64,000 nucleotides of DNA from a virus. The DNA is taken from IMG/VR virus record IMGVR_UViG_3300025502_000011. One strand, written 5' to 3'. A program made the position numbers and the translations under genes. Numbering within the stretch: the first letter of the stretch is position 1; every line of letters begins with the position of its first letter. Positions 9,839 through 29,564 of this stretch are shown here, piece after piece. A model generated the notes under the pieces. That model searched no databases and had not been told where the DNA came from. It saw only the letters and a program-made list of their open reading frames with translations.

Positions 9839-9922
9839 TGTTTTCTTTTATATATAAATACTTAGAATTTAAATTTTTGTTTATTTCTTCGTATCAACAT
9901 TTTACCTTAATTAACCACACCC

Positions 9923-10020
9923 ACACATAACAACGTGTATAATAAAGTTTGCTATCAAGTTCAGTGGTAATTTAAAAGTTCATCTAAGCAAACCTTCTCA
10001 TACACCCATTCGTTACCCAC
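9923..10020. mobile_element. attC-like site A
   Basis: ACATAAC...GTGTAT..AGTTTGCT / AGCAAACC..ATACAC...GTTACCC imperfect palindrome. Confidence 0.85.
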
Positions 10021-10041
10021 AATGTAAAAAGCCGCCAAGCT

Positions 10042-10560
10042 TTACGGCTGTATGTTTAGCAACTCTTTTTCTCTTTTTCTAATACTTCTATAATCTATAA
10101 AGTTATGTGTTCCTTTATTCGCTTTTTCGCCAAATATTATAATACTCATTCCCATCCATAAACCTCGTGGTTCATCATTAAAATTTACTTCACCGTTTAT
10201 AAAACGTATTTCTGCATCAATCATAGTTTCTGCCCACCATTTTGTATTACTTCTTACTGGTATTAAGCAAACTTTTGTGCCACCATTTATTAACGCTTCG
10301 TTATGTGCTTTTTTAACCCATTTACTTAAATTTCTATCAAATGGAGGGTTCATCCAACAATTACCAATCCAATCTTTATTTAAAGAATTATCTTCTTTAG
10401 TCCAGTATTTTGGTAATTTATGATTTAATGAACTTGCACAAACATCAGTAGTTATTGCAAACTCTTTTATTAAAGGTTGTACAATCGTTTTAGGTGTACT
10501 ATACTCAATGCTTTTACTCTCAAAAGAGTTGTTTTTATTTCCAATTTTATCTATTCCCAT
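10042..10560 (-). CDS. Cassette-borne phage N6-adenine methyltransferase (Dam-phage family)
   Basis: YSTP, DVCAS, W.GNCWMNPPF, LIPVRSNTKWW motifs. Confidence 0.85.
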   Translation of the reverse strand: MGIDKIGNKNNSFESKSIEYSTPKTIVQPLIKEFAITTDVCASSLNHKLPKYWTKEDNSLNKDWIGNCWMNPPFDRNLSKWVKKAHNEALINGGTKVCLIPVRSNTKWWAETMIDAEIRFINGEVNFNDEPRGLWMGMSIIIFGEKANKGTHNFIDYRSIRKREKELLNIQP

Positions 10561-10605
10561 TCTGTATGTATTTGCCCTCGTACCTCACGCACGGCTTTTT
10601 AAAAA

Positions 10606-13300: not shown

Positions 13301-13990
13301 TTAAAAAACTCTCTGTGTTAGTCTCTCAAATCCGTCCTTCCATGTTTCGTGTTTATCAAATCTTTCACCACAACCAGTGGTTCCACCTTTCCAGCTTCCT
13401 CTTCTCTTTCCTACTTCTGAAGAGAATTCAACGTCAATTGTACGACTCACTTGGCTGAACATAGTTGTTCGTTTGAACCATCTCATTCTCCATTCTCTCT
13501 CCGAGATGGATATATCGGCATTAACCACGTTCAGTTCTCCATTTGGAGTGTGCTTATCAACATACGGCATATTAGTTCTCCACATTTTCTCTTTCCATTC
13601 GTCTTTATAAAAGTCTTGTTTGTCGCCTTTTATTGAATGAACCCATGTTCCATCCTTCAGTTTAATGCTGTGGCGAACGTGGTCGAGATTCCAGGGCATA
13701 TTAATGTATTTAGATTTCTTTCCGTAACGAATAACAAAGCTCTGACTCTGCCAACCATCCTGATACCAATAACAGCCGTACTGTTCTGAGTCGCCGTAAT
13801 CCTTTCTCTTGTGTGACCAGGGCATACTCCAAAACAGGCTCCAGAATAGGAATGCTATATGGATTTGGGGTCTCTCATCATCAGAATACCCGTGGCACTC
13901 GTAAGTTAAGTGAAAAGCAACTGGTTTTCCCCAGCTGTATCTATAAAATGATATATTATCGTTTTCAAACTTCTTTGTGGGGTTTCGCAT
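13301..13990 (-). CDS. Phage hypothetical protein
   Basis: 229-aa ORF. Confidence 0.7.
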   Translation of the reverse strand: MRNPTKKFENDNISFYRYSWGKPVAFHLTYECHGYSDDERPQIHIAFLFWSLFWSMPWSHKRKDYGDSEQYGCYWYQDGWQSQSFVIRYGKKSKYINMPWNLDHVRHSIKLKDGTWVHSIKGDKQDFYKDEWKEKMWRTNMPYVDKHTPNGELNVVNADISISEREWRMRWFKRTTMFSQVSRTIDVEFSSEVGKRRGSWKGGTTGCGERFDKHETWKDGFERLTQRVF

Positions 13991-14062: not shown

Positions 14063-14134
14063 AGGGGCGTAGGGGGTTCGAACCCCTGACGTACAGGGTT
14101 AAAGCCTGATGTTCTACCTCTGAACTAACGCCCC
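14063..14134 (-). tRNA. tRNA with anticodon UUA (ochre suppressor)
   Basis: GGGGCGT-TA-GTTC AGAGGTA GAAC-A-TCAGG CTTTAAC CCTGT-ACGTC-AGGGG TTCGAAC CCCCT-ACGCCCC-T; canonical cloverleaf with a 7-nt anticodon loop. Confidence 0.88.
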
Positions 14135-14347: not shown

Positions 14348-15106
14348 CTAACTAGGTTTTGAAGTTATCAACCATTCTTTTAATGTCATGAATTCTTTCA
14401 CCTTACCTGGGACAGAATTTTCTAGTTTGGCTAACTTTATGTTGATTTTATCTTTGTTTTTTCTATCATAGATGTAGTCTATTATGCCTGGATTCTCTTT
14501 AAAGTACCATATCGCATATTCTAGTGTTCTCTCTATTTCTTCATCAATGGTTTTTGATTCATCAATATGCGTCAATACAATGGTTGGAAAATAAGAGCAG
14601 CATGGAATGGCGTCATTGCAGTTTGTTGACATATGTATACCATACTTTGATTTCTCTGGACTTTCTAACTCGAATATTTCCACGGACAAAGATTCTCCGA
14701 TACTGTACAAGGATTTCATCCACGAAGGATTTCTTTCTGGATTAAACTCTGTGTCTTTTACAATGTAAGTCTGTTTTGATATTTTGCTTGCCATTTCTTG
14801 CGCTGATTCTTCTTTAGCATTTAATTGGTCTATTTTTTTAAACACATCTCCATACTCAGAGAAGATTAAATCTGTTTTTTCACAAAACTCATCTATTATA
14901 TCAAAGAAGTTTGATGCCATTGGGCTCATGTAGTACATCAGTACAAAGTTGTAAGACATTCTGTCTCCATTCCAGTATTGGACTTCAAAACTAATTTCAC
15001 CACCCAACTCGGTGCCAAAATTAATATCCACACACTCAAACTTGTCATTATAATCCATTACTTTTTTAAACCAATCCATTATTTTTTTTGTTTTTAATCC
15101 TCGCAA
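14348..15106 (-). CDS. Hypothetical protein
   Basis: 252-aa ORF. Confidence 0.7.
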   Translation of the reverse strand: MRGLKTKKIMDWFKKVMDYNDKFECVDINFGTELGGEISFEVQYWNGDRMSYNFVLMYYMSPMASNFFDIIDEFCEKTDLIFSEYGDVFKKIDQLNAKEESAQEMASKISKQTYIVKDTEFNPERNPSWMKSLYSIGESLSVEIFELESPEKSKYGIHMSTNCNDAIPCCSYFPTIVLTHIDESKTIDEEIERTLEYAIWYFKENPGIIDYIYDRKNKDKINIKLAKLENSVPGKVKEFMTLKEWLITSKPS

Positions 15107-15510
15107 GGCAAGTGACCATATTTATGAAAATACTTTAATGGACGTTTCAATTTTCCATTAATCCAAAAACCCCATTTTCGTCGTGGCTTAAACGCTAATA
15201 CAAATGTCCAGCAAGACACATCTTTAGGAAGCACTACATTATGTATATGTTCTGCTTTTCTAAAGCGAATGCTTCCTTGTCTTAACTTATCGATTCCATT
15301 TGGGCTTATGTCTAAATAGCCTCCTTTCAGTATGAAAGTGATAAAATCCCAAGCATGGTCATGCTGGTGCGCGATTGGTTCACTTCTTATGAAGTTGTGA
15401 ACTCGGAACGAAAATAAGTAGAAATTGAACACCCATCTGTAAGCATACGGGCAACTTTTTTCACCTAAAGCTTCGTTCCATCTGAACTGAATTGGTCTGA
15501 ACTTTTTCAT
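15094..15510 (-). CDS. Cupin-like protein
   Basis: HQHDHAW.F...ILKGGY and H.HNV motifs. Confidence 0.7.
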   Translation of the reverse strand: MKKFRPIQFRWNEALGEKSCPYAYRWVFNFYLFSFRVHNFIRSEPIAHQHDHAWDFITFILKGGYLDISPNGIDKLRQGSIRFRKAEHIHNVVLPKDVSCWTFVLAFKPRRKWGFWINGKLKRPLKYFHKYGHLPCED

Positions 15511-16019
15511 TTCTTGATTCGGATTATAGCTGAGGGTACAGTTTTGTAATCCTCAACAAATGAATAATCTGGGACCATTGTCACGGAGTAGTTCTTATCT
15601 TGAAGCCACTCACGGAATTCTTTGTGCAGTTAAGTCTCTCCAACCATCCAAAAAGGAGATGTTAAGCTTGAGATTGTTCCGCCTGGTGCAAGTTGGTCAT
15701 ACATGTGCATGATGTGTTTGCAATCGACATTGTCTCGAAAGTTAGGACAGGCAATGACGTAATCATATGGTGTCTGGGCTTCGAATCGGAAGAAGTCTGA
15801 GCCAACCAACTCATATTCTTTTTCTTTCAGTGTGACTCGGCATTCTTGATTAAGTTCTACACAGTCAATTTTACACTGTTGGAATTTTTCTTGAACCCCG
15901 TCCGCCAATACTCCTGTGCCTGCAGATGGTTCTAGTATTCTCGCTCCAGGCTTCGGGTTTAATCTCTCACATAAAGCATCAATCACCACTTGGGGTGTAA
16001 TTCTGTTTGTCTCTACCAT
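15507..16019 (-). CDS. SAM-dependent methyltransferase with an internal in-frame TAA (15630-15632)
   Basis: ILEPSAGTG, VELN, ACPNF; past the TAA the frame continues LHKEFREWL...VPDYSFVED..TVPSAIIRIKK to a TGA overlapping the next ATG. Confidence 0.8.
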
Positions 16020-16041
16020 AGCTTTCGTTTTTTTTATTGTT

Positions 16042-16132
16042 TGGTGAACGGAATAGGAATCGAACCTACAACTTTTCTTATGGCCGCTAAGCCATCTAGT
16101 TTTGCGCCTTCCATCCTTTTAAGTACTCGTTC
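16042..16132 (-). tRNA. Degenerate tRNA-like gene with encoded CCA
   Basis: T-arm GTAGG TTCGATT CCTAT, acceptor GAACGAG/TCCGTTC, ACCA end; no canonical anticodon arm could be resolved. Confidence 0.4.
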
Positions 16133-16173
16133 GAACATTTCCTTAAAAATCTTGGTGCAATCCGCCCATGTTG

Positions 16174-16225
16174 TGGCGTGGGGAGAAACGAATCTCACGC
16201 GAATCTTCTTTCAGATTCTCACGCC
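16174..16225 (-). ncRNA. Mini tRNA-like RNA, family B copy 1
   Basis: GGCGTG-AGAATCT gaaaga AGATTCGC-GTGAGA TTCGTT TCTCCC-CACGCC-A. Confidence 0.65.
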
Positions 16226-16285
16226 ATGTGGGGGAAGTTGTTTATGAGAACAGCGCCTCCCCAAGCATCTCACTGCTCATTATAA

Positions 16286-16452
16286 TGGTCCCGCGAGAGG
16301 GTTCTGCCCCCCATCATTTCTTCAACATCAACTACTAACTCACTCTTGTGGCCACGCAAGTGAGTTTTTGTGTTTGCATCCCGAACTGAGTCCTTTCGGT
16401 TCGTCTTCCACATTATCAGTGTGGTGCTTTAACATATCTAAGCTATCGCAGG
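16286..16452 (-). tRNA. tRNA-Ile(GAU) with a ~90-nt insertion in the variable region
   Basis: CCTGCGA/TCGCGGG acceptor plus ACCA, intact CCACA CTGATAA TGTGG arm, non-canonical T-loop (GCAGAA). Confidence 0.65.
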
Positions 16453-16458
16453 AAATTG

Positions 16459-16601
16459 TCCTGGAGGAAGGGCTCGAACCCCCGACCCCCACCGTTCGAT
16501 TCCAATTCTCTACTTCACAACCCTTGTGGCCACGCAGGTTGCGTTTCAATCCTTTTCCTCATTTATCAGGGTGGTGCTCTAACCAACTGAGCTACTCCAG
16601 G
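16459..16601 (-). tRNA. tRNA-Ile(GAU) with a 69-nt insertion at position 37/38
   Basis: CCTGGAG/CTCCAGG acceptor and canonical D and T arms; removing 16495-16563 restores CCACC CTGATAC GGTGG. Confidence 0.8.
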
Positions 16602-16605
16602 AAGT

Positions 16606-16650
16606 GCCGCTAACAGGAATCTCACCTATTCTAGTGCTAATGCAAGCGGC
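16606..16650 (-). ncRNA. Mini tRNA-like RNA, family A copy 1
   Basis: GCCGCT-TGCATTAGCACTAG-AATAGG TGAGATT CCTGTT-AGCGGC. Confidence 0.75.
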
Positions 16651-16651
16651 G

Positions 16652-16731
16652 TGGTGGTGAGGGAAGGACTTGAACCTTCGACCTCCAGGGTTTTAAAGCC
16701 TGGTGCTCTGAACCAACTGAGCTACCTCACC
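16652..16731 (-). tRNA. tRNA with a 9-nt anticodon loop (CUUUAAAAC)
   Basis: GGTGAGG/CCTCACC-A-CCA; CCAGG CTTTAAAAC CCTGG; canonical D and T arms. Confidence 0.8.
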
Positions 16732-16735
16732 AAGA

Positions 16736-16780
16736 GGCCCCAGGAAGACTTTCTCTTCCTCTAGTGCTAATGCAGGGGCC
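16736..16780 (-). ncRNA. Mini tRNA-like RNA, family A copy 2
   Basis: GGCCCC-TGCATTAGCACTAG-AGGAAG AGAAAGT CTTCCT-GGGGCC. Confidence 0.75.
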
Positions 16781-16781
16781 G

Positions 16782-16835
16782 TGGTGGCGTGGGAAGAAAC
16801 GAATCTCCCGCGAATCCCTAATGGACTCTCACGCC
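16782..16835 (-). ncRNA. Mini tRNA-like RNA, family B copy 2 (CCA encoded)
   Basis: GGCGTG-AGAGTCC atta GGGATTCGC-GGGAGA TTCGTT TCTTCC-CACGCC-ACCA. Confidence 0.7.
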
Positions 16836-16871
16836 TTTTTTAAATTCCAACACGTCAATGAACTTTTGTTG

Positions 16872-16945
16872 TGACAGGAGAAAGATTCGAACTCTCGTCC
16901 CCAGGTTTTTAAGGCCTGGTGCTCTAACCGCTGAGCTATCCCGTC
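16872..16945 (-). tRNA. tRNA with a 9-nt anticodon loop (CCUUAAAAA)
   Basis: GACGGGA/TCCTGTC-A; CCAGG CCTTAAAAA CCTGG; T-arm GAGAG TTCGAAT CTTTC. Confidence 0.8.
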
Positions 16946-17066: not shown

Positions 17067-17486
17067 TCATGCGGCTTCTTTACAATTACAACTCTTGAGA
17101 GTTGGTTGATTCGTAAATTCTTTGAAAGCAAGTGGTAGACTAGATAACCAACGGGCAGATTCTTTCCCTGGTTCTACGGTAATAGACGTGAACTGGTTGT
17201 CGAGGTCAGGCTCCTGGAAGGAACTGAAATTAATACCTTTTTGCGTGAGTTTGTCTCGGAGCTCGATGAGTTCTTGCTCGTCTTTGACTGATAAGAATCC
17301 TAAATATGGATTCGATAACCATTTTTCATAAATGGCTGTGTATTCTTGATTGAATACGTGGAATGAATGCATTCCTTGAGTTGCCTGCGCTCCAGGAGCG
17401 AGGTCTCGTCTTACGACGATGTAAAGCTTTAAGTTTTTCTTCTCTGTAGAAGGGTGTACTTACTGGTTGTCTAATGCTTTTTTCAT
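17067..17486 (-). CDS. Peptidyl-tRNA hydrolase II (PTH2)-like protein with an in-frame TAA at codon 9
   Basis: MKKALDNQ*VHPSTEKKNLKLYIVVRRDLAPGAQATQGMH...LSVKDEQEL...FQEPDLDNQFTSITV; ends TGA TGA. Confidence 0.8.
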
Positions 17487-26842: not shown

Positions 26843-27237
26843 TGAACTGGCTTTGTGCCAAAGCGGTATTTCTCCCTTAATTCAGAATAGAATTGAGGGT
26901 TGCCTTTCAGTTGTGAAATCACCTTGTCGGCCACTTCTAAGATGTTAAATTCTGGGTTTCTCTGTTTTTCGATTTTCAATCCGAGATTGAATTCCGTTGT
27001 TGGAAATTCATAAATCTCTTTATTGTCAGCTAGTTGAGCATAGTCCCACAGATAATCTGCTACGGGGTCTACGTCTTGAGGAACCTGTGTCGCCTCCCTT
27101 CCTTCATAAGGAAACTTACCCTTGTCGTTTGTCGCATACACATGGGCTTGCCCATCATTTTCATGAATTGCGTATTTCTCAAAAAGAGCACTTCTTACTA
27201 TGGAACGGATTAATTTCACGCCTATTTGGTTTCCCAT
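26836..27237 (-). CDS. Hypothetical protein
   Basis: 133-aa ORF. Confidence 0.6.
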   Translation of the reverse strand: MGNQIGVKLIRSIVRSALFEKYAIHENDGQAHVYATNDKGKFPYEGREATQVPQDVDPVADYLWDYAQLADNKEIYEFPTTEFNLGLKIEKQRNPEFNILEVADKVISQLKGNPQFYSELREKYRFGTKPVQW

Positions 27238-27300
27238 AAATAGGCACGAAAACCTATTTAGTCGCCTCTATTTAGTCGCCTCTAGCCTGTCTATTTCAGC

Positions 27301-27927
27301 TTAGATAAAGTCAATCTTGTTTTGAGTAGTCTGCCCTTTATATCCAACGTCTTTCAACATTTCCAAGAGTTTGACTCTAATTAGCTGCTCCCCGATGTTT
27401 TCAATCTTCATTTGGAGTGAGTTATACTCACCAATCTCAAATTGGTCCTTAGCTTCCTTTTTGTCATTGACAGATTTAATTAGGACGTTGATGGCGTCTC
27501 TCATTAAATCACGAAAACCTTCTGGTGGAGCAAACTCTTTGTTTCGGAGAATGTCATACTGAATAGTGTGGATGTTGGCCATCATTGTCTTACAAGGGCA
27601 ATCGTGAAGCTCCCCTTTGTAGTCCATGACTCTCACACAGCCGTCAATCATATCTAAGATAATCGACTGTTCCTTAGTGAACACGATTGTTTCCTCTTGA
27701 GTATCTTGAGCCACAATCATAGATACAAATCCTCTGATTTGTTCCATATTCATTTCTCTCTCTGGAAATAAGAATGTCGTCTTGGTGATGGGAATCATCT
27801 TCTCTAGGTCGTTGTAAGAAGAGTATGGGACGATGATGAATTTGATTATTTTACCATTGTAAAACATCTTTGACATTGATTCTTGCTCTGGTGTGAGGTC
27901 GAATATTCCTTTTTTAAACTGACTCAT
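27301..27927 (-). CDS. Hypothetical protein
   Basis: 208-aa ORF. Confidence 0.7.
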   Translation of the reverse strand: MSQFKKGIFDLTPEQESMSKMFYNGKIIKFIIVPYSSYNDLEKMIPITKTTFLFPEREMNMEQIRGFVSMIVAQDTQEETIVFTKEQSIILDMIDGCVRVMDYKGELHDCPCKTMMANIHTIQYDILRNKEFAPPEGFRDLMRDAINVLIKSVNDKKEAKDQFEIGEYNSLQMKIENIGEQLIRVKLLEMLKDVGYKGQTTQNKIDFI

Positions 27928-27938
27928 GTTCGCTTATG

Positions 27939-28553
27939 TTAGTTGTCAAACCAGAAAACAATTCGGTACTCCAAATCTTTTTTTTCATTTGACCTATTAT
28001 CGTATCTAAAAACTTCTTCTTTTCTTTGCTCCATCGCCTCAATCAGGCCTTTGAGAGTATCTCTTTGAGATTCCCACTTTCTAAAAATTTGGCTTGGTGC
28101 GTTTCCACCGTGCCACCAAAATTTAGGCATTTCTCCCGCATCTACTCGTGCTGCATCGTCTGGCGACATAAACCCAGAGTATTTAGTCTCTTTCTGGTTT
28201 TTTCTGTATTCTTTTAGCTCTGCCAAAGTTAACCAGGAATGCGAATGACCATCACCGCCCCAATACTCTTGTTGTTCCATGATGTACGCACAACAATCGC
28301 TAGGAATGCCTTTGGGTTCGCATATAAAATTATTATCCCTTTCGTTTCTGACGTTGGCCAAGACTCCGAACAAATCGTAATTCCTTCCTCCGCAGACCTC
28401 GACAACATTAAACTGGCTTTCACCTTCTTCGTTATCTCTCTCGAAGTATTTATTCATCGTGAACAGGTCACAATTTTCCCAAACTTCTTTGTCTTCATCC
28501 ATTGCTGGCCGTTGTGGCTTGCGCTCTGAAAACATGTGAATATCACATCCCAT
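27939..28553 (-). CDS. Conserved phage hypothetical protein (MGCDIH family)
   Basis: MGCDIH, RNY.LFG.LA.VR, GDGHSHSWLTL.EL, RIVFWFDN motifs. Confidence 0.8.
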   Translation of the reverse strand: MGCDIHMFSERKPQRPAMDEDKEVWENCDLFTMNKYFERDNEEGESQFNVVEVCGGRNYDLFGVLANVRNERDNNFICEPKGIPSDCCAYIMEQQEYWGGDGHSHSWLTLAELKEYRKNQKETKYSGFMSPDDAARVDAGEMPKFWWHGGNAPSQIFRKWESQRDTLKGLIEAMEQRKEEVFRYDNRSNEKKDLEYRIVFWFDN

Positions 28554-28573
28554 TGCTATTGTTTTTAATGCTC

Positions 28574-28602
28574 AATATACGCAAGAAATTGAATTAAGTT
28601 AC
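28574..28602 (-). promoter_or_regulatory. Bipartite phage promoter motif
   Basis: GTAAC-N16-CGTATATT. Confidence 0.75.
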
Positions 28603-29564
28603 ATTCCAAAATGAGTCTCCATTGAAGATTGACAAATCATAAGCAAACCACACTGGTATTCAACTTGGCTATCAAACCCTTCTTTCACTAGCTTGTTTTG
28701 ACTAATAGTCATTTCAGCCTTGAAATCCTCGTAATTGTCATGATTCCTCCACGCATCAATGTAGCCTTGCATTGCAGATTGAATCATATCAGCCAAAGTA
28801 TATCCTCGTTTGTGCACCATCCATTCTGAGGGTGACCAAAACTGGACACCTTTTCTGTCTTCACGGAACGAGTAGTATAATCGCTTATAAACCTCTCCAT
28901 CTCGGTTTTTTTGCTGGAATTCTAAGTAGCGTTCGTTTGCTTTCTTATCGAAAGTCAAGTGCAAGTGAGCATCAACCAATTGCATTGCTTCTTGAGAACC
29001 TGCAAAATCCTCTTCCTTGGTTACCATGCCAATAACGAACACTGTTCCCCCAGTTTCTTTCGCCCATTTAAGAAGCATACGAACCGCCTCTACTTCGCGC
29101 TCTAATTTTCCGCCTGGAATATCAGATGCAGCAGTTTGAAGTGAGTCCACAATGATGAACTCTGTTTTGTTTTCTTTTGTCAATTCCAAAAAAGAGACAA
29201 GCGTAGGAATGCTTCTCTCGTCGTCCAAATGAGCATTAGCATGGAAGTCCATGTTTTGATTACGAGAGCGCACTTTACCTGCGCTAGACTCTCTTTGATA
29301 TTGTGCGGACTTCATGCTTTTAAGCTCACATTGTAGTTGAGTAAATAGTGTGGTTTTGCCTGCCCCTGAGGAGCCAGTTACAAAATACACTTGCTCTTTA
29401 ACGATTCCTCCATCAAACGAAAATAAATCATTAAGAAGATTGTGTTCTGTGAGAAAAACTTGTAAAGGAATGTCTATCACTTTGGTAGACGGCGTCAACT
29501 GTGGTTTTAATTGGTCTGCTAAGTCTTGTTCTTCCATGATTATATTTATATAGTGCTCATTCAC
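28599..29564 (-). CDS. RadA/Sms-like RecA-superfamily ATPase
   Basis: TGSSGAGKTT Walker A, IVDSLQT Walker B, AG...QLVD, KNR motifs. Confidence 0.75.
   Translation of the reverse strand: MNEHYINIIMEEQDLADQLKPQLTPSTKVIDIPLQVFLTEHNLLNDLFSFDGGIVKEQVYFVTGSSGAGKTTLFTQLQCELKSMKSAQYQRESSAGKVRSRNQNMDFHANAHLDDERSIPTLVSFLELTKENKTEFIIVDSLQTAASDIPGGKLEREVEAVRMLLKWAKETGGTVFVIGMVTKEEDFAGSQEAMQLVDAHLHLTFDKKANERYLEFQQKNRDGEVYKRLYYSFREDRKGVQFWSPSEWMVHKRGYTLADMIQSAMQGYIDAWRNHDNYEDFKAEMTISQNKLVKEGFDSQVEYQCGLLMICQSSMETHFGM

Follow-up and report, generated by a model that had tools for sequence, protein, structure and literature searches.

Probable Gene-specific Suppression of a Conserved In-frame Ochre Codon in a Phage Methyltransferase Gene

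The window analyzed here, a 64,000-nucleotide stretch forming part of a 141-kb IMG/VR virus record (IMGVR_UViG_3300025502_000011, estimated completeness 64%), contains a gene for a putative S-adenosylmethionine (SAM)-dependent methyltransferase (MTase) that is interrupted by an in-frame TAA, beyond which the same reading frame remains open up to the next gene. The question raised by this locus is whether the stop ends the protein or is a codon that the phage decodes. The comparisons described below make it probable that the gene is subject to programmed, gene-specific ochre suppression, in which codon 130 is deliberately kept as a stop and the full MTase is obtained only by decoding UAA.

Conservation of the stop codon and of the frame beyond it

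The MTase gene lies on the minus strand. The part preceding the stop (16019..15633, 129 codons) encodes motif I of the SAM-binding site (LEPSAGTG) and, as motif IV, the degenerate form CPNF, and is followed by the TAA (codon 130, 15632..15630) and by a read-through extension of 40 sense codons (15629..15510, LHKEFREWLQDKNYSVTMVPDYSFVEDYKTVPSAIIRIKK). The extended frame ends at a TGA (15509..15507) that overlaps the ATG (15510..15508) of the following gene in an ATGA junction, all on the minus strand. This downstream gene (15510..15094, minus strand) encodes a 138-residue cupin-like protein (PHROG 4786, annotated as “cysteine dioxygenase”) and was always found directly after the MTase in the contigs compared. 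The open reading frame (ORF) coordinates confirm the stop at 15630 and the 40-codon open frame beyond it that had been reported in a first-pass annotation of the window, and the ATGA overlap described there (15507–15510) is present and is the same in those relatives that reach the junction. On its own the open frame is weak evidence, with 40 open codons expected by chance at this base composition with an estimated probability of ∼6%.

A search with the read-through protein returned seven relatives, at 98–65% identity, that had been called as proteins ending exactly at the stop site of the window, together with five further relatives (43–49% identity, 172–250 residues) that have no stop and align over 84–100% of the query, extension included; those of 172–190 residues cover 99–100% of it. 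DNA was compared for 12 contigs with the short form, representing 8 distinct sequences. The TAA occupies the same codon in 12/12 of these contigs (65–98% identity), and every contig of sufficient length retains the 40-codon open frame and the ATGA junction. A more distant relative, L094 (∼50% identity), carries TAG in the same column; AGG comes next, and the extension, here of 41 codons, is conserved and likewise ends in ATGA. The uninterrupted homologs have Thr, Asp, Glu, or Pro at the stop column. In the related contigs, the TAA is thus kept and not replaced by a sense codon, the point on which the first-pass annotation had proposed that homologs be aligned. Scans of IMG/VR and JGI data for MTase relatives revealed no further member of the TAA-bearing clade, returning uninterrupted or multidomain relatives plus the contigs L095 and L096 discussed below. 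One additional 126-residue protein (P0065), with no DNA on record, ends near the same site. Two proteins starting near codon 17 (P0017 and P0010) were considered as interrupted genes and rejected, one reflecting a contig end and the other having an open upstream frame.

The extension evolves as a coding sequence. The proportion of synonymous differences (pS) within it is 0.6–0.9, near saturation, compared with 0.12–0.19 for nonsynonymous differences (pN), and the ratio of the corresponding rates (dN/dS) is ∼0.02–0.2 in most pairs. Counted by codon position (1/2/3), variable columns number 16, 11, and 35 of 40 in the extension, a pattern shared by the upstream part (68, 43, and 120 of 129). The extension is therefore under purifying selection, and the decay that the first-pass annotation had named as a refutation is not seen. 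The locus is present in salt-lake metagenome runs, and contigs from four of these cover both stop codons with zero differing letters; one of the four spans the whole stretch in one piece and possibly has the same source as the window DNA, so that it is not independent. The agreement of the four runs across both stops does not bear out the sequencing error that had been raised as an alternative. A sequencing error, a recent nonsense mutation, or a decaying pseudogene would account for the presence of a stop codon and nothing further, and these explanations are excluded, with a negligible residual probability, because the stop has been kept while synonymous sites became saturated and because the site reads identically in the four metagenome runs.

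Fold of the predicted read-through protein

An AlphaFold2 model of the 170-residue read-through protein was obtained with a predicted local distance difference test score (pLDDT) of 91 and a predicted template modeling score (pTM) of 0.88. In the model, codon 130 falls in a loop preceding helix 130–139, and the extension supplies this single helix along with the final two strands of the Rossmann fold (elements H130–139, E143–148, and E164–169), completing the seven-stranded class I Rossmann sheet. A Foldseek search identified the M.TaqI catalytic domain (E 2e-11, TM 0.75), with KsgA, TrmN6, and METTL5-type enzymes also found and with alignments reaching residue 170. Motif I (LEPSAG.G) is invariant in the family, and the family-invariant residues R136, S153, and E156 lie within the extension. 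The earlier suggestion that the extension represents the C-terminal strands of this MTase family therefore holds, as the extension aligns to the C terminus of the uninterrupted homologs and contains these three residues.

The protein belongs to a sequence family of 14,574 proteins, most of which are the MTase domain of giant polyvalent phage proteins, and it matches PHROGs 11358, 9133, and 15406 with E values down to 5e-32. Pfam gathering thresholds were missed (MTS, 20.3 versus 23; N6_Mtase, 19.3 versus 20.4), and no NCBIfam model scored above its cut-off. The canonical motif IV, (D/N/S)PP(Y/F/W), is missing, with CPNF found in this clade and CPTF, APTY, APPF, or APNF in relatives; NPPF occurs only in the polyvalent-protein relatives. 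The phage protein thus resembles M.TaqI, a gamma-class N6-adenine MTase, and the polyvalent-protein MTase domain in its fold and motif I, but differs from them in being only 170 residues long, in having no target-recognition domain, and in carrying CPNF in place of NPPF/Y. The model supports the assignment of the product as a 170-residue putative SAM-dependent MTase with a gamma-like class I fold.

It could be argued that the truncated 129-residue protein is the sole product and that something else, such as a role as leader for the cupin-like gene, preserves the downstream 120 nucleotides. Gene callers indeed annotate the MTase in every assembly as a 129-residue ORF only, but the variation beyond the stop has a three-base period with its third positions in the MTase frame, and the extension matches the C terminus of the uninterrupted homologs residue by residue, including the invariant R136, S153, and E156, which renders this explanation very improbable. 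Taken together, these sequence comparisons support translation of the extension in the MTase frame.

Amber counterparts, cognate suppressor tRNAs, and a second interrupted gene

A second form of the interrupted gene was found in a sister clade. The metagenome contigs L095 (239 kb) and L096 (88 kb) contain MTase orthologs, at 47 and 44% identity, respectively, that have no stop at codon 130 and carry a TAG at codon 17. The 16 codons preceding the TAG are homologous to the N terminus of the family, no conservation is seen in the DNA upstream of the ATG, and in L096 the first possible ATG, GTG, or TTG does not occur before codon 60. A tRNA(CUA) is located 300–750 nucleotides upstream of the MTase in both contigs, in the same tRNA cluster, and the loci otherwise use the standard code; the ATGA junction is present in both, as it is in L094. 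In a tree of the MTases, the TAA-130 sequences group together as a clade (support 92/87), with L095/L096 and L094 outside it, and interrupted MTase genes must consequently have originated at least twice. The TAG-130 of L094 may or may not share its origin with the TAA clade according to this tree.

The codon that follows the stop, and the amber form of the gene, bear on whether the enzyme could be split into the 129-residue part and a 40-residue peptide made by reinitiation after the stop, the two assembling noncovalently. The extension is conserved as a protein, as such a peptide would be, and the codon following the stop is CTG in the group of the window and GTG in three relatives. This codon is, however, GTA in L010 and AGG in L094, neither of them a start, and no other in-frame start is conserved. 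Moreover, a stop at codon 17, with no start before codon 60 in L096, makes a sensible split impossible in the amber clade, where the arrangement is the same. A split enzyme is accordingly regarded as improbable.

An ochre-suppressor tRNA is encoded in the window at 14134..14063 (minus strand), with the anticodon UUA in a 7-nucleotide loop, CUUUAAC (U33, A37), and was identified by ARAGORN and by the Rfam tRNA model (66 bits). The suppressor that had been noted 1.4 kb from the stop is hence confirmed as a tRNA(UUA) on the same strand as the MTase, conserved and covarying. It is also found near the MTase in two diverged relatives, L009 and L010. The three copies have identical anticodon loops, 98% of their stem cells pair, and 10/21 pairs have changed on both sides, covariation values that were reached in 0/500 shuffles. 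This pattern indicates that tRNA(UUA) is kept by selection as an RNA. The discriminator base is U, A, and U in the three copies, and the L009 copy may resemble Escherichia coli tRNA-Lys. Stop and suppressor are also matched in type, with UUA accompanying TAA and CUA accompanying TAG in 8/8 contigs in which an interrupted gene and a suppressor occur together (3 UUA, 5 CUA). The stop-less close relatives (L014, L015, and L097–L102) have no suppressor within 10 kb, despite the presence of 22 tRNAs there in L014. A scan of IMG/VR for the suppressor anticodon arm gave zero hits.

A comparison of L095 with L096 revealed a second interrupted gene, encoding a Pth2-like protein, which begins ATG AAA (AAA) TAG, with the TAG at codon 3–4. 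The Pth2-like gene of the window (17486..17067, minus strand) has a leader, MKKALDNQ, followed by a TAA at codon 9 (17462..17460), a conserved body, and the end TGA TGA. No ATG, GTG, or TTG occurs between this TAA and Met38, and L001/L002, L006, L009, and L011 all share this TAA as well as the leader MKKxLDxQ. Both interrupted genes of the window end in TGA, which is unreadable by a UUA anticodon. Pth2-like homologs beginning MK-TAG or MS-TAG were found in two huge uncultured phages (LR756500 and LR756501) and in the cultured Tenacibaculum phage pT24, in each case with a tRNA(CUA) within 3 kb; none of these three records contains this MTase. In pT24 (L177, LC168164, ∼194086–195036), the coding sequence BPT24_235 has been called at least 81 nucleotides short, starting downstream of the conserved N terminus. 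The pT24 gene most likely begins ATG AAA TAG and requires the annotated tRNA-Sup (BPT24_227).

In the ochre and amber clades alike, the MTase and Pth2-like genes flank a tRNA array, which in the window occupies 16459..16945 (minus strand) and includes a tRNA-Ile(GAU) that bears an insertion and two tRNAs whose anticodon loops are 9 nucleotides long. In the window, in L095, and in L181, tRNA-Ile(GAU) genes lie just upstream of the MTase. The two unusual tRNAs (16872–16945 and 16655–16731, minus strand) have anticodon loops of the sequences CCUUAAAAA and CUUUAAAAC, following the pattern NNU-UAA-AAN, with short variable loops and A73, and are conserved in L001. The insertion in the tRNA-Ile(GAU) (16459–16601, minus strand) lies in the anticodon loop and is ∼69 nucleotides in length. 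Further degenerate tRNA-like pieces and repeated structured elements occur between the tRNAs (16040–16452, minus strand), with sub-threshold matches only to the Rfam tRNA model (16045–16132 and 16379–16452).

A possible third interrupted gene (L182) was noted outside the window at G000:C1 ∼108100–109030 (minus strand), where a 12-codon leader that starts with ATG and ends in ATA TAA AAC precedes a 279-codon ORF with no assigned function. A relative at ∼85% identity (L183, ∼9850–10600) shares both the TAA and the leader, which there has 10 codons. A homolog at 66% identity has ATG where these two have ATT, and an ATT start is thus an alternative reading. A genome-wide search for further interrupted genes by coding potential was insensitive, missing the MTase itself, and an all-frame comparison was swamped by off-frame matches. 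Among the other genes of the window, no Pfam domain was found to span a TAA, and six same-frame gene pairs tested for domain spanning were all negative.

Decoding of UAA in a phage that terminates with TAA

Standard-code ORFs fill the window, giving full coding density, and TAA is the commonest terminator of the phage, ending 90/155 or 96/169 crude gene calls (∼57%). Genome-wide reassignment of TAA, as in an alternative code, was rejected on both grounds. Because TAA still ends ∼57% of the genes, the arrangement is better described as gene-specific gating than as recoding, and because TAA remains the main terminator, suppression is expected to be partial or limited in time.

The earlier proposal that a full-length enzyme would need ochre suppression is supported by the conserved stop, the selected extension, the lack of a separate start, and the conserved tRNA, from which we infer both the read-through product and its decoder. 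Termination at codon 130 would yield a 129-residue fragment, presumably inactive because the last helix, the last two strands, and several invariant residues are missing from it, whereas decoding of the stop would yield the 170-residue MTase. The most likely decoder is the phage tRNA(UUA), which would pair with UAA and, via wobble, with UAG. Suppression is probably weak or timed, given that TAA is the main terminator and that early back-up stops are lacking, and MTase output would consequently be low or suppressor-gated. Read-through of UAA would likewise produce the Pth2-like protein. Ribosomes that read through the MTase stop and end at the ATGA could terminate and reinitiate on the cupin-like gene, the translation of which is probably coupled to MTase read-through, because the read-through frame ends in ATGA on the cupin-like start and the gene always follows the MTase. 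The gating could serve dosage control, timing, or feedback on the phage translation apparatus. The identity of the decoder, the residue inserted, the efficiency of suppression, the cupin coupling, and the purpose of the gating are all matters of inference.

Several observations weigh against programmed suppression by the phage tRNA. A comparison with 94 tRNAs gave no isotype for tRNA(UUA). The TAA-bearing groups L001/L002, L006/L007, L008, L011, and L012 are represented by short contigs without a suppressor tRNA, some of them maybe too short to include it. The genome does not look visibly adapted to an efficient ochre suppressor, with a median extension of 11 codons past TAA-terminated genes compared with 5 past those ending in TGA, and with no enrichment of early back-up stops. 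UAA is usually the least leaky of the stop codons. No RNA or proteome data holding the locus were found, only DNA runs. Finally, motif IV is degenerate, CPNF rather than NPPF, and enzyme activity is accordingly putative.

Some of these observations would fit low-level read-through that is real yet independent of the phage tRNA, brought about by near-cognate tRNAs of the host or by a leaky context as in the A1 protein of phage Q-beta. A conserved stop and a selected extension are expected equally under such a mechanism, which would also accommodate the short related contigs without a suppressor and a phage that has no back-up stops adapted to a strong one. Against it, the stop used here is the one that leaks least in bacteria, and neither a conserved RNA structure nor a fixed context was found downstream of it. 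In addition, TAA occurs with tRNA(UUA) in one clade and TAG with tRNA(CUA) in the other, across two genes, and the tRNA is conserved with compensatory changes. Host-mediated read-through is therefore considered unlikely, and the phage suppressor remains the preferred decoder. In Q-beta, a host tRNA decodes the leaky UGA, and A1 gains a new domain through the extension. As would be the case here, a short protein and a longer read-through form come from a single mRNA; the present locus differs in that the UAA cuts a single domain in two and in that the virus encodes the cognate suppressor.

Recoding of stops by suppressor tRNAs has been described for crAss-like, Lak, and “gemstone” phages, the hosts of which use the standard code (Borges et al., 10.1101/2021.08.26.457843). 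Only TAG-to-Gln and TGA-to-Trp changes were seen in that study, and a role in regulating which genes get translated was proposed (Borges et al., 10.1101/2021.08.26.457843). Those phages and the present one are alike in that a phage tRNA reads, or here would read, stops inside phage genes. In the recoding phages, however, many genes have TAG or TGA reassigned, and that codon is depleted as a terminator, whereas in this phage the codon is TAA, which ends ∼57% of genes and lies in frame in only two, possibly three, specific genes. Xanthomonas phage XacN1 (PMC5852040) and Agrobacterium phage Atu_ph07 (PMC6102473) are tRNA-rich, standard-code jumbo phages having, as here, both a suppressor tRNA and a peptidyl-tRNA hydrolase gene; their suppressors are not known to have targets. 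For XacN1, in silico read-through of its 18 amber stops found no target (PMC5852040). The targets proposed here were identified by comparison between phages, and one of them, with its stop near the start of the gene, would escape a check that reads past gene ends.

Suppressor tRNAs are often annotated in large phages with the standard code, with their targets not known, and this locus supplies concrete, conserved target genes. What is new relative to known phage suppression is the UAA codon, the restriction to a few conserved genes, and the parallel amber form. The acquisition of matching stops by the same two genes in the ochre and amber lineages argues for function rather than accident. The locus further suggests that UAA, the main terminator of the phage, can serve as a programmed in-frame codon. 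The locus also falls in a blind spot of annotation: the MTase is called everywhere as a 129-residue fragment, and the Pth2-like gene is truncated at its N terminus in the pT24 record and is likewise truncated in the window if only standard ORFs are read. As pT24 is cultured, the amber version is directly testable.

More tentatively, and with a probability that we place well below even, the MTase and the Pth2-like gene may form a small suppressor-gated translational circuit, with products (a peptidyl-tRNA hydrolase-like and an adenine-MTase-like enzyme) that may have tRNA or rRNA as their target and so exert feedback on decoding or termination. Were this the case, the output of both genes would rise with suppressor activity, and the circuit would set the strength of UAA read-through during infection. 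It would then represent the first natural programmed sense or regulatory UAA in a bacterial virus, and its evolution would have run parallel to that of a UAG-based form in other large phages, among them the cultured pT24.

With respect to the remainder of the genome, a nucleotide search of GenBank phages gave no match to the locus, and a phage-encoded release factor or Gln/Glu-tRNA synthetase was looked for and not found. An asparaginyl-tRNA synthetase is encoded outside the window at G000:C1:138853–140049 (plus strand; L179:1198–2394), matching TIGR00457 with 371 bits, above the cut-off, and carrying an anticodon-binding OB domain; the 141-kb record yielded no tRNA-Asn, and nothing ties this enzyme to the suppressor or to the odd tRNAs. 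Just downstream of the suppressor tRNA, at 13301–13990 (minus strand), lies a homolog of Acb3, an inhibitor of the cyclic oligonucleotide-based antiphage signaling system (CBASS) (Pfam PF25187, E 7e-34). A separate Dam-family DNA adenine MTase (PF05869, E 3e-21; 10042–10560, minus strand) terminates in TAA, beyond which an open stretch of 26 codons does not look domain-like. Outside the window, at G000:C1 ∼27000–28900 (minus strand), long open frames of repeated peptide units (PVYHLILQGNHN... and CLSSHSARESQH...) were observed, which indicates tandem DNA repeats. In L183, which represents a different genome region, a T4-type portal gene is split by inteins, DNA polymerase III alpha is found in pieces with Hint/intein matches, and T4 baseplate genes are also present; this group of phages thus possesses T4-like structural genes.
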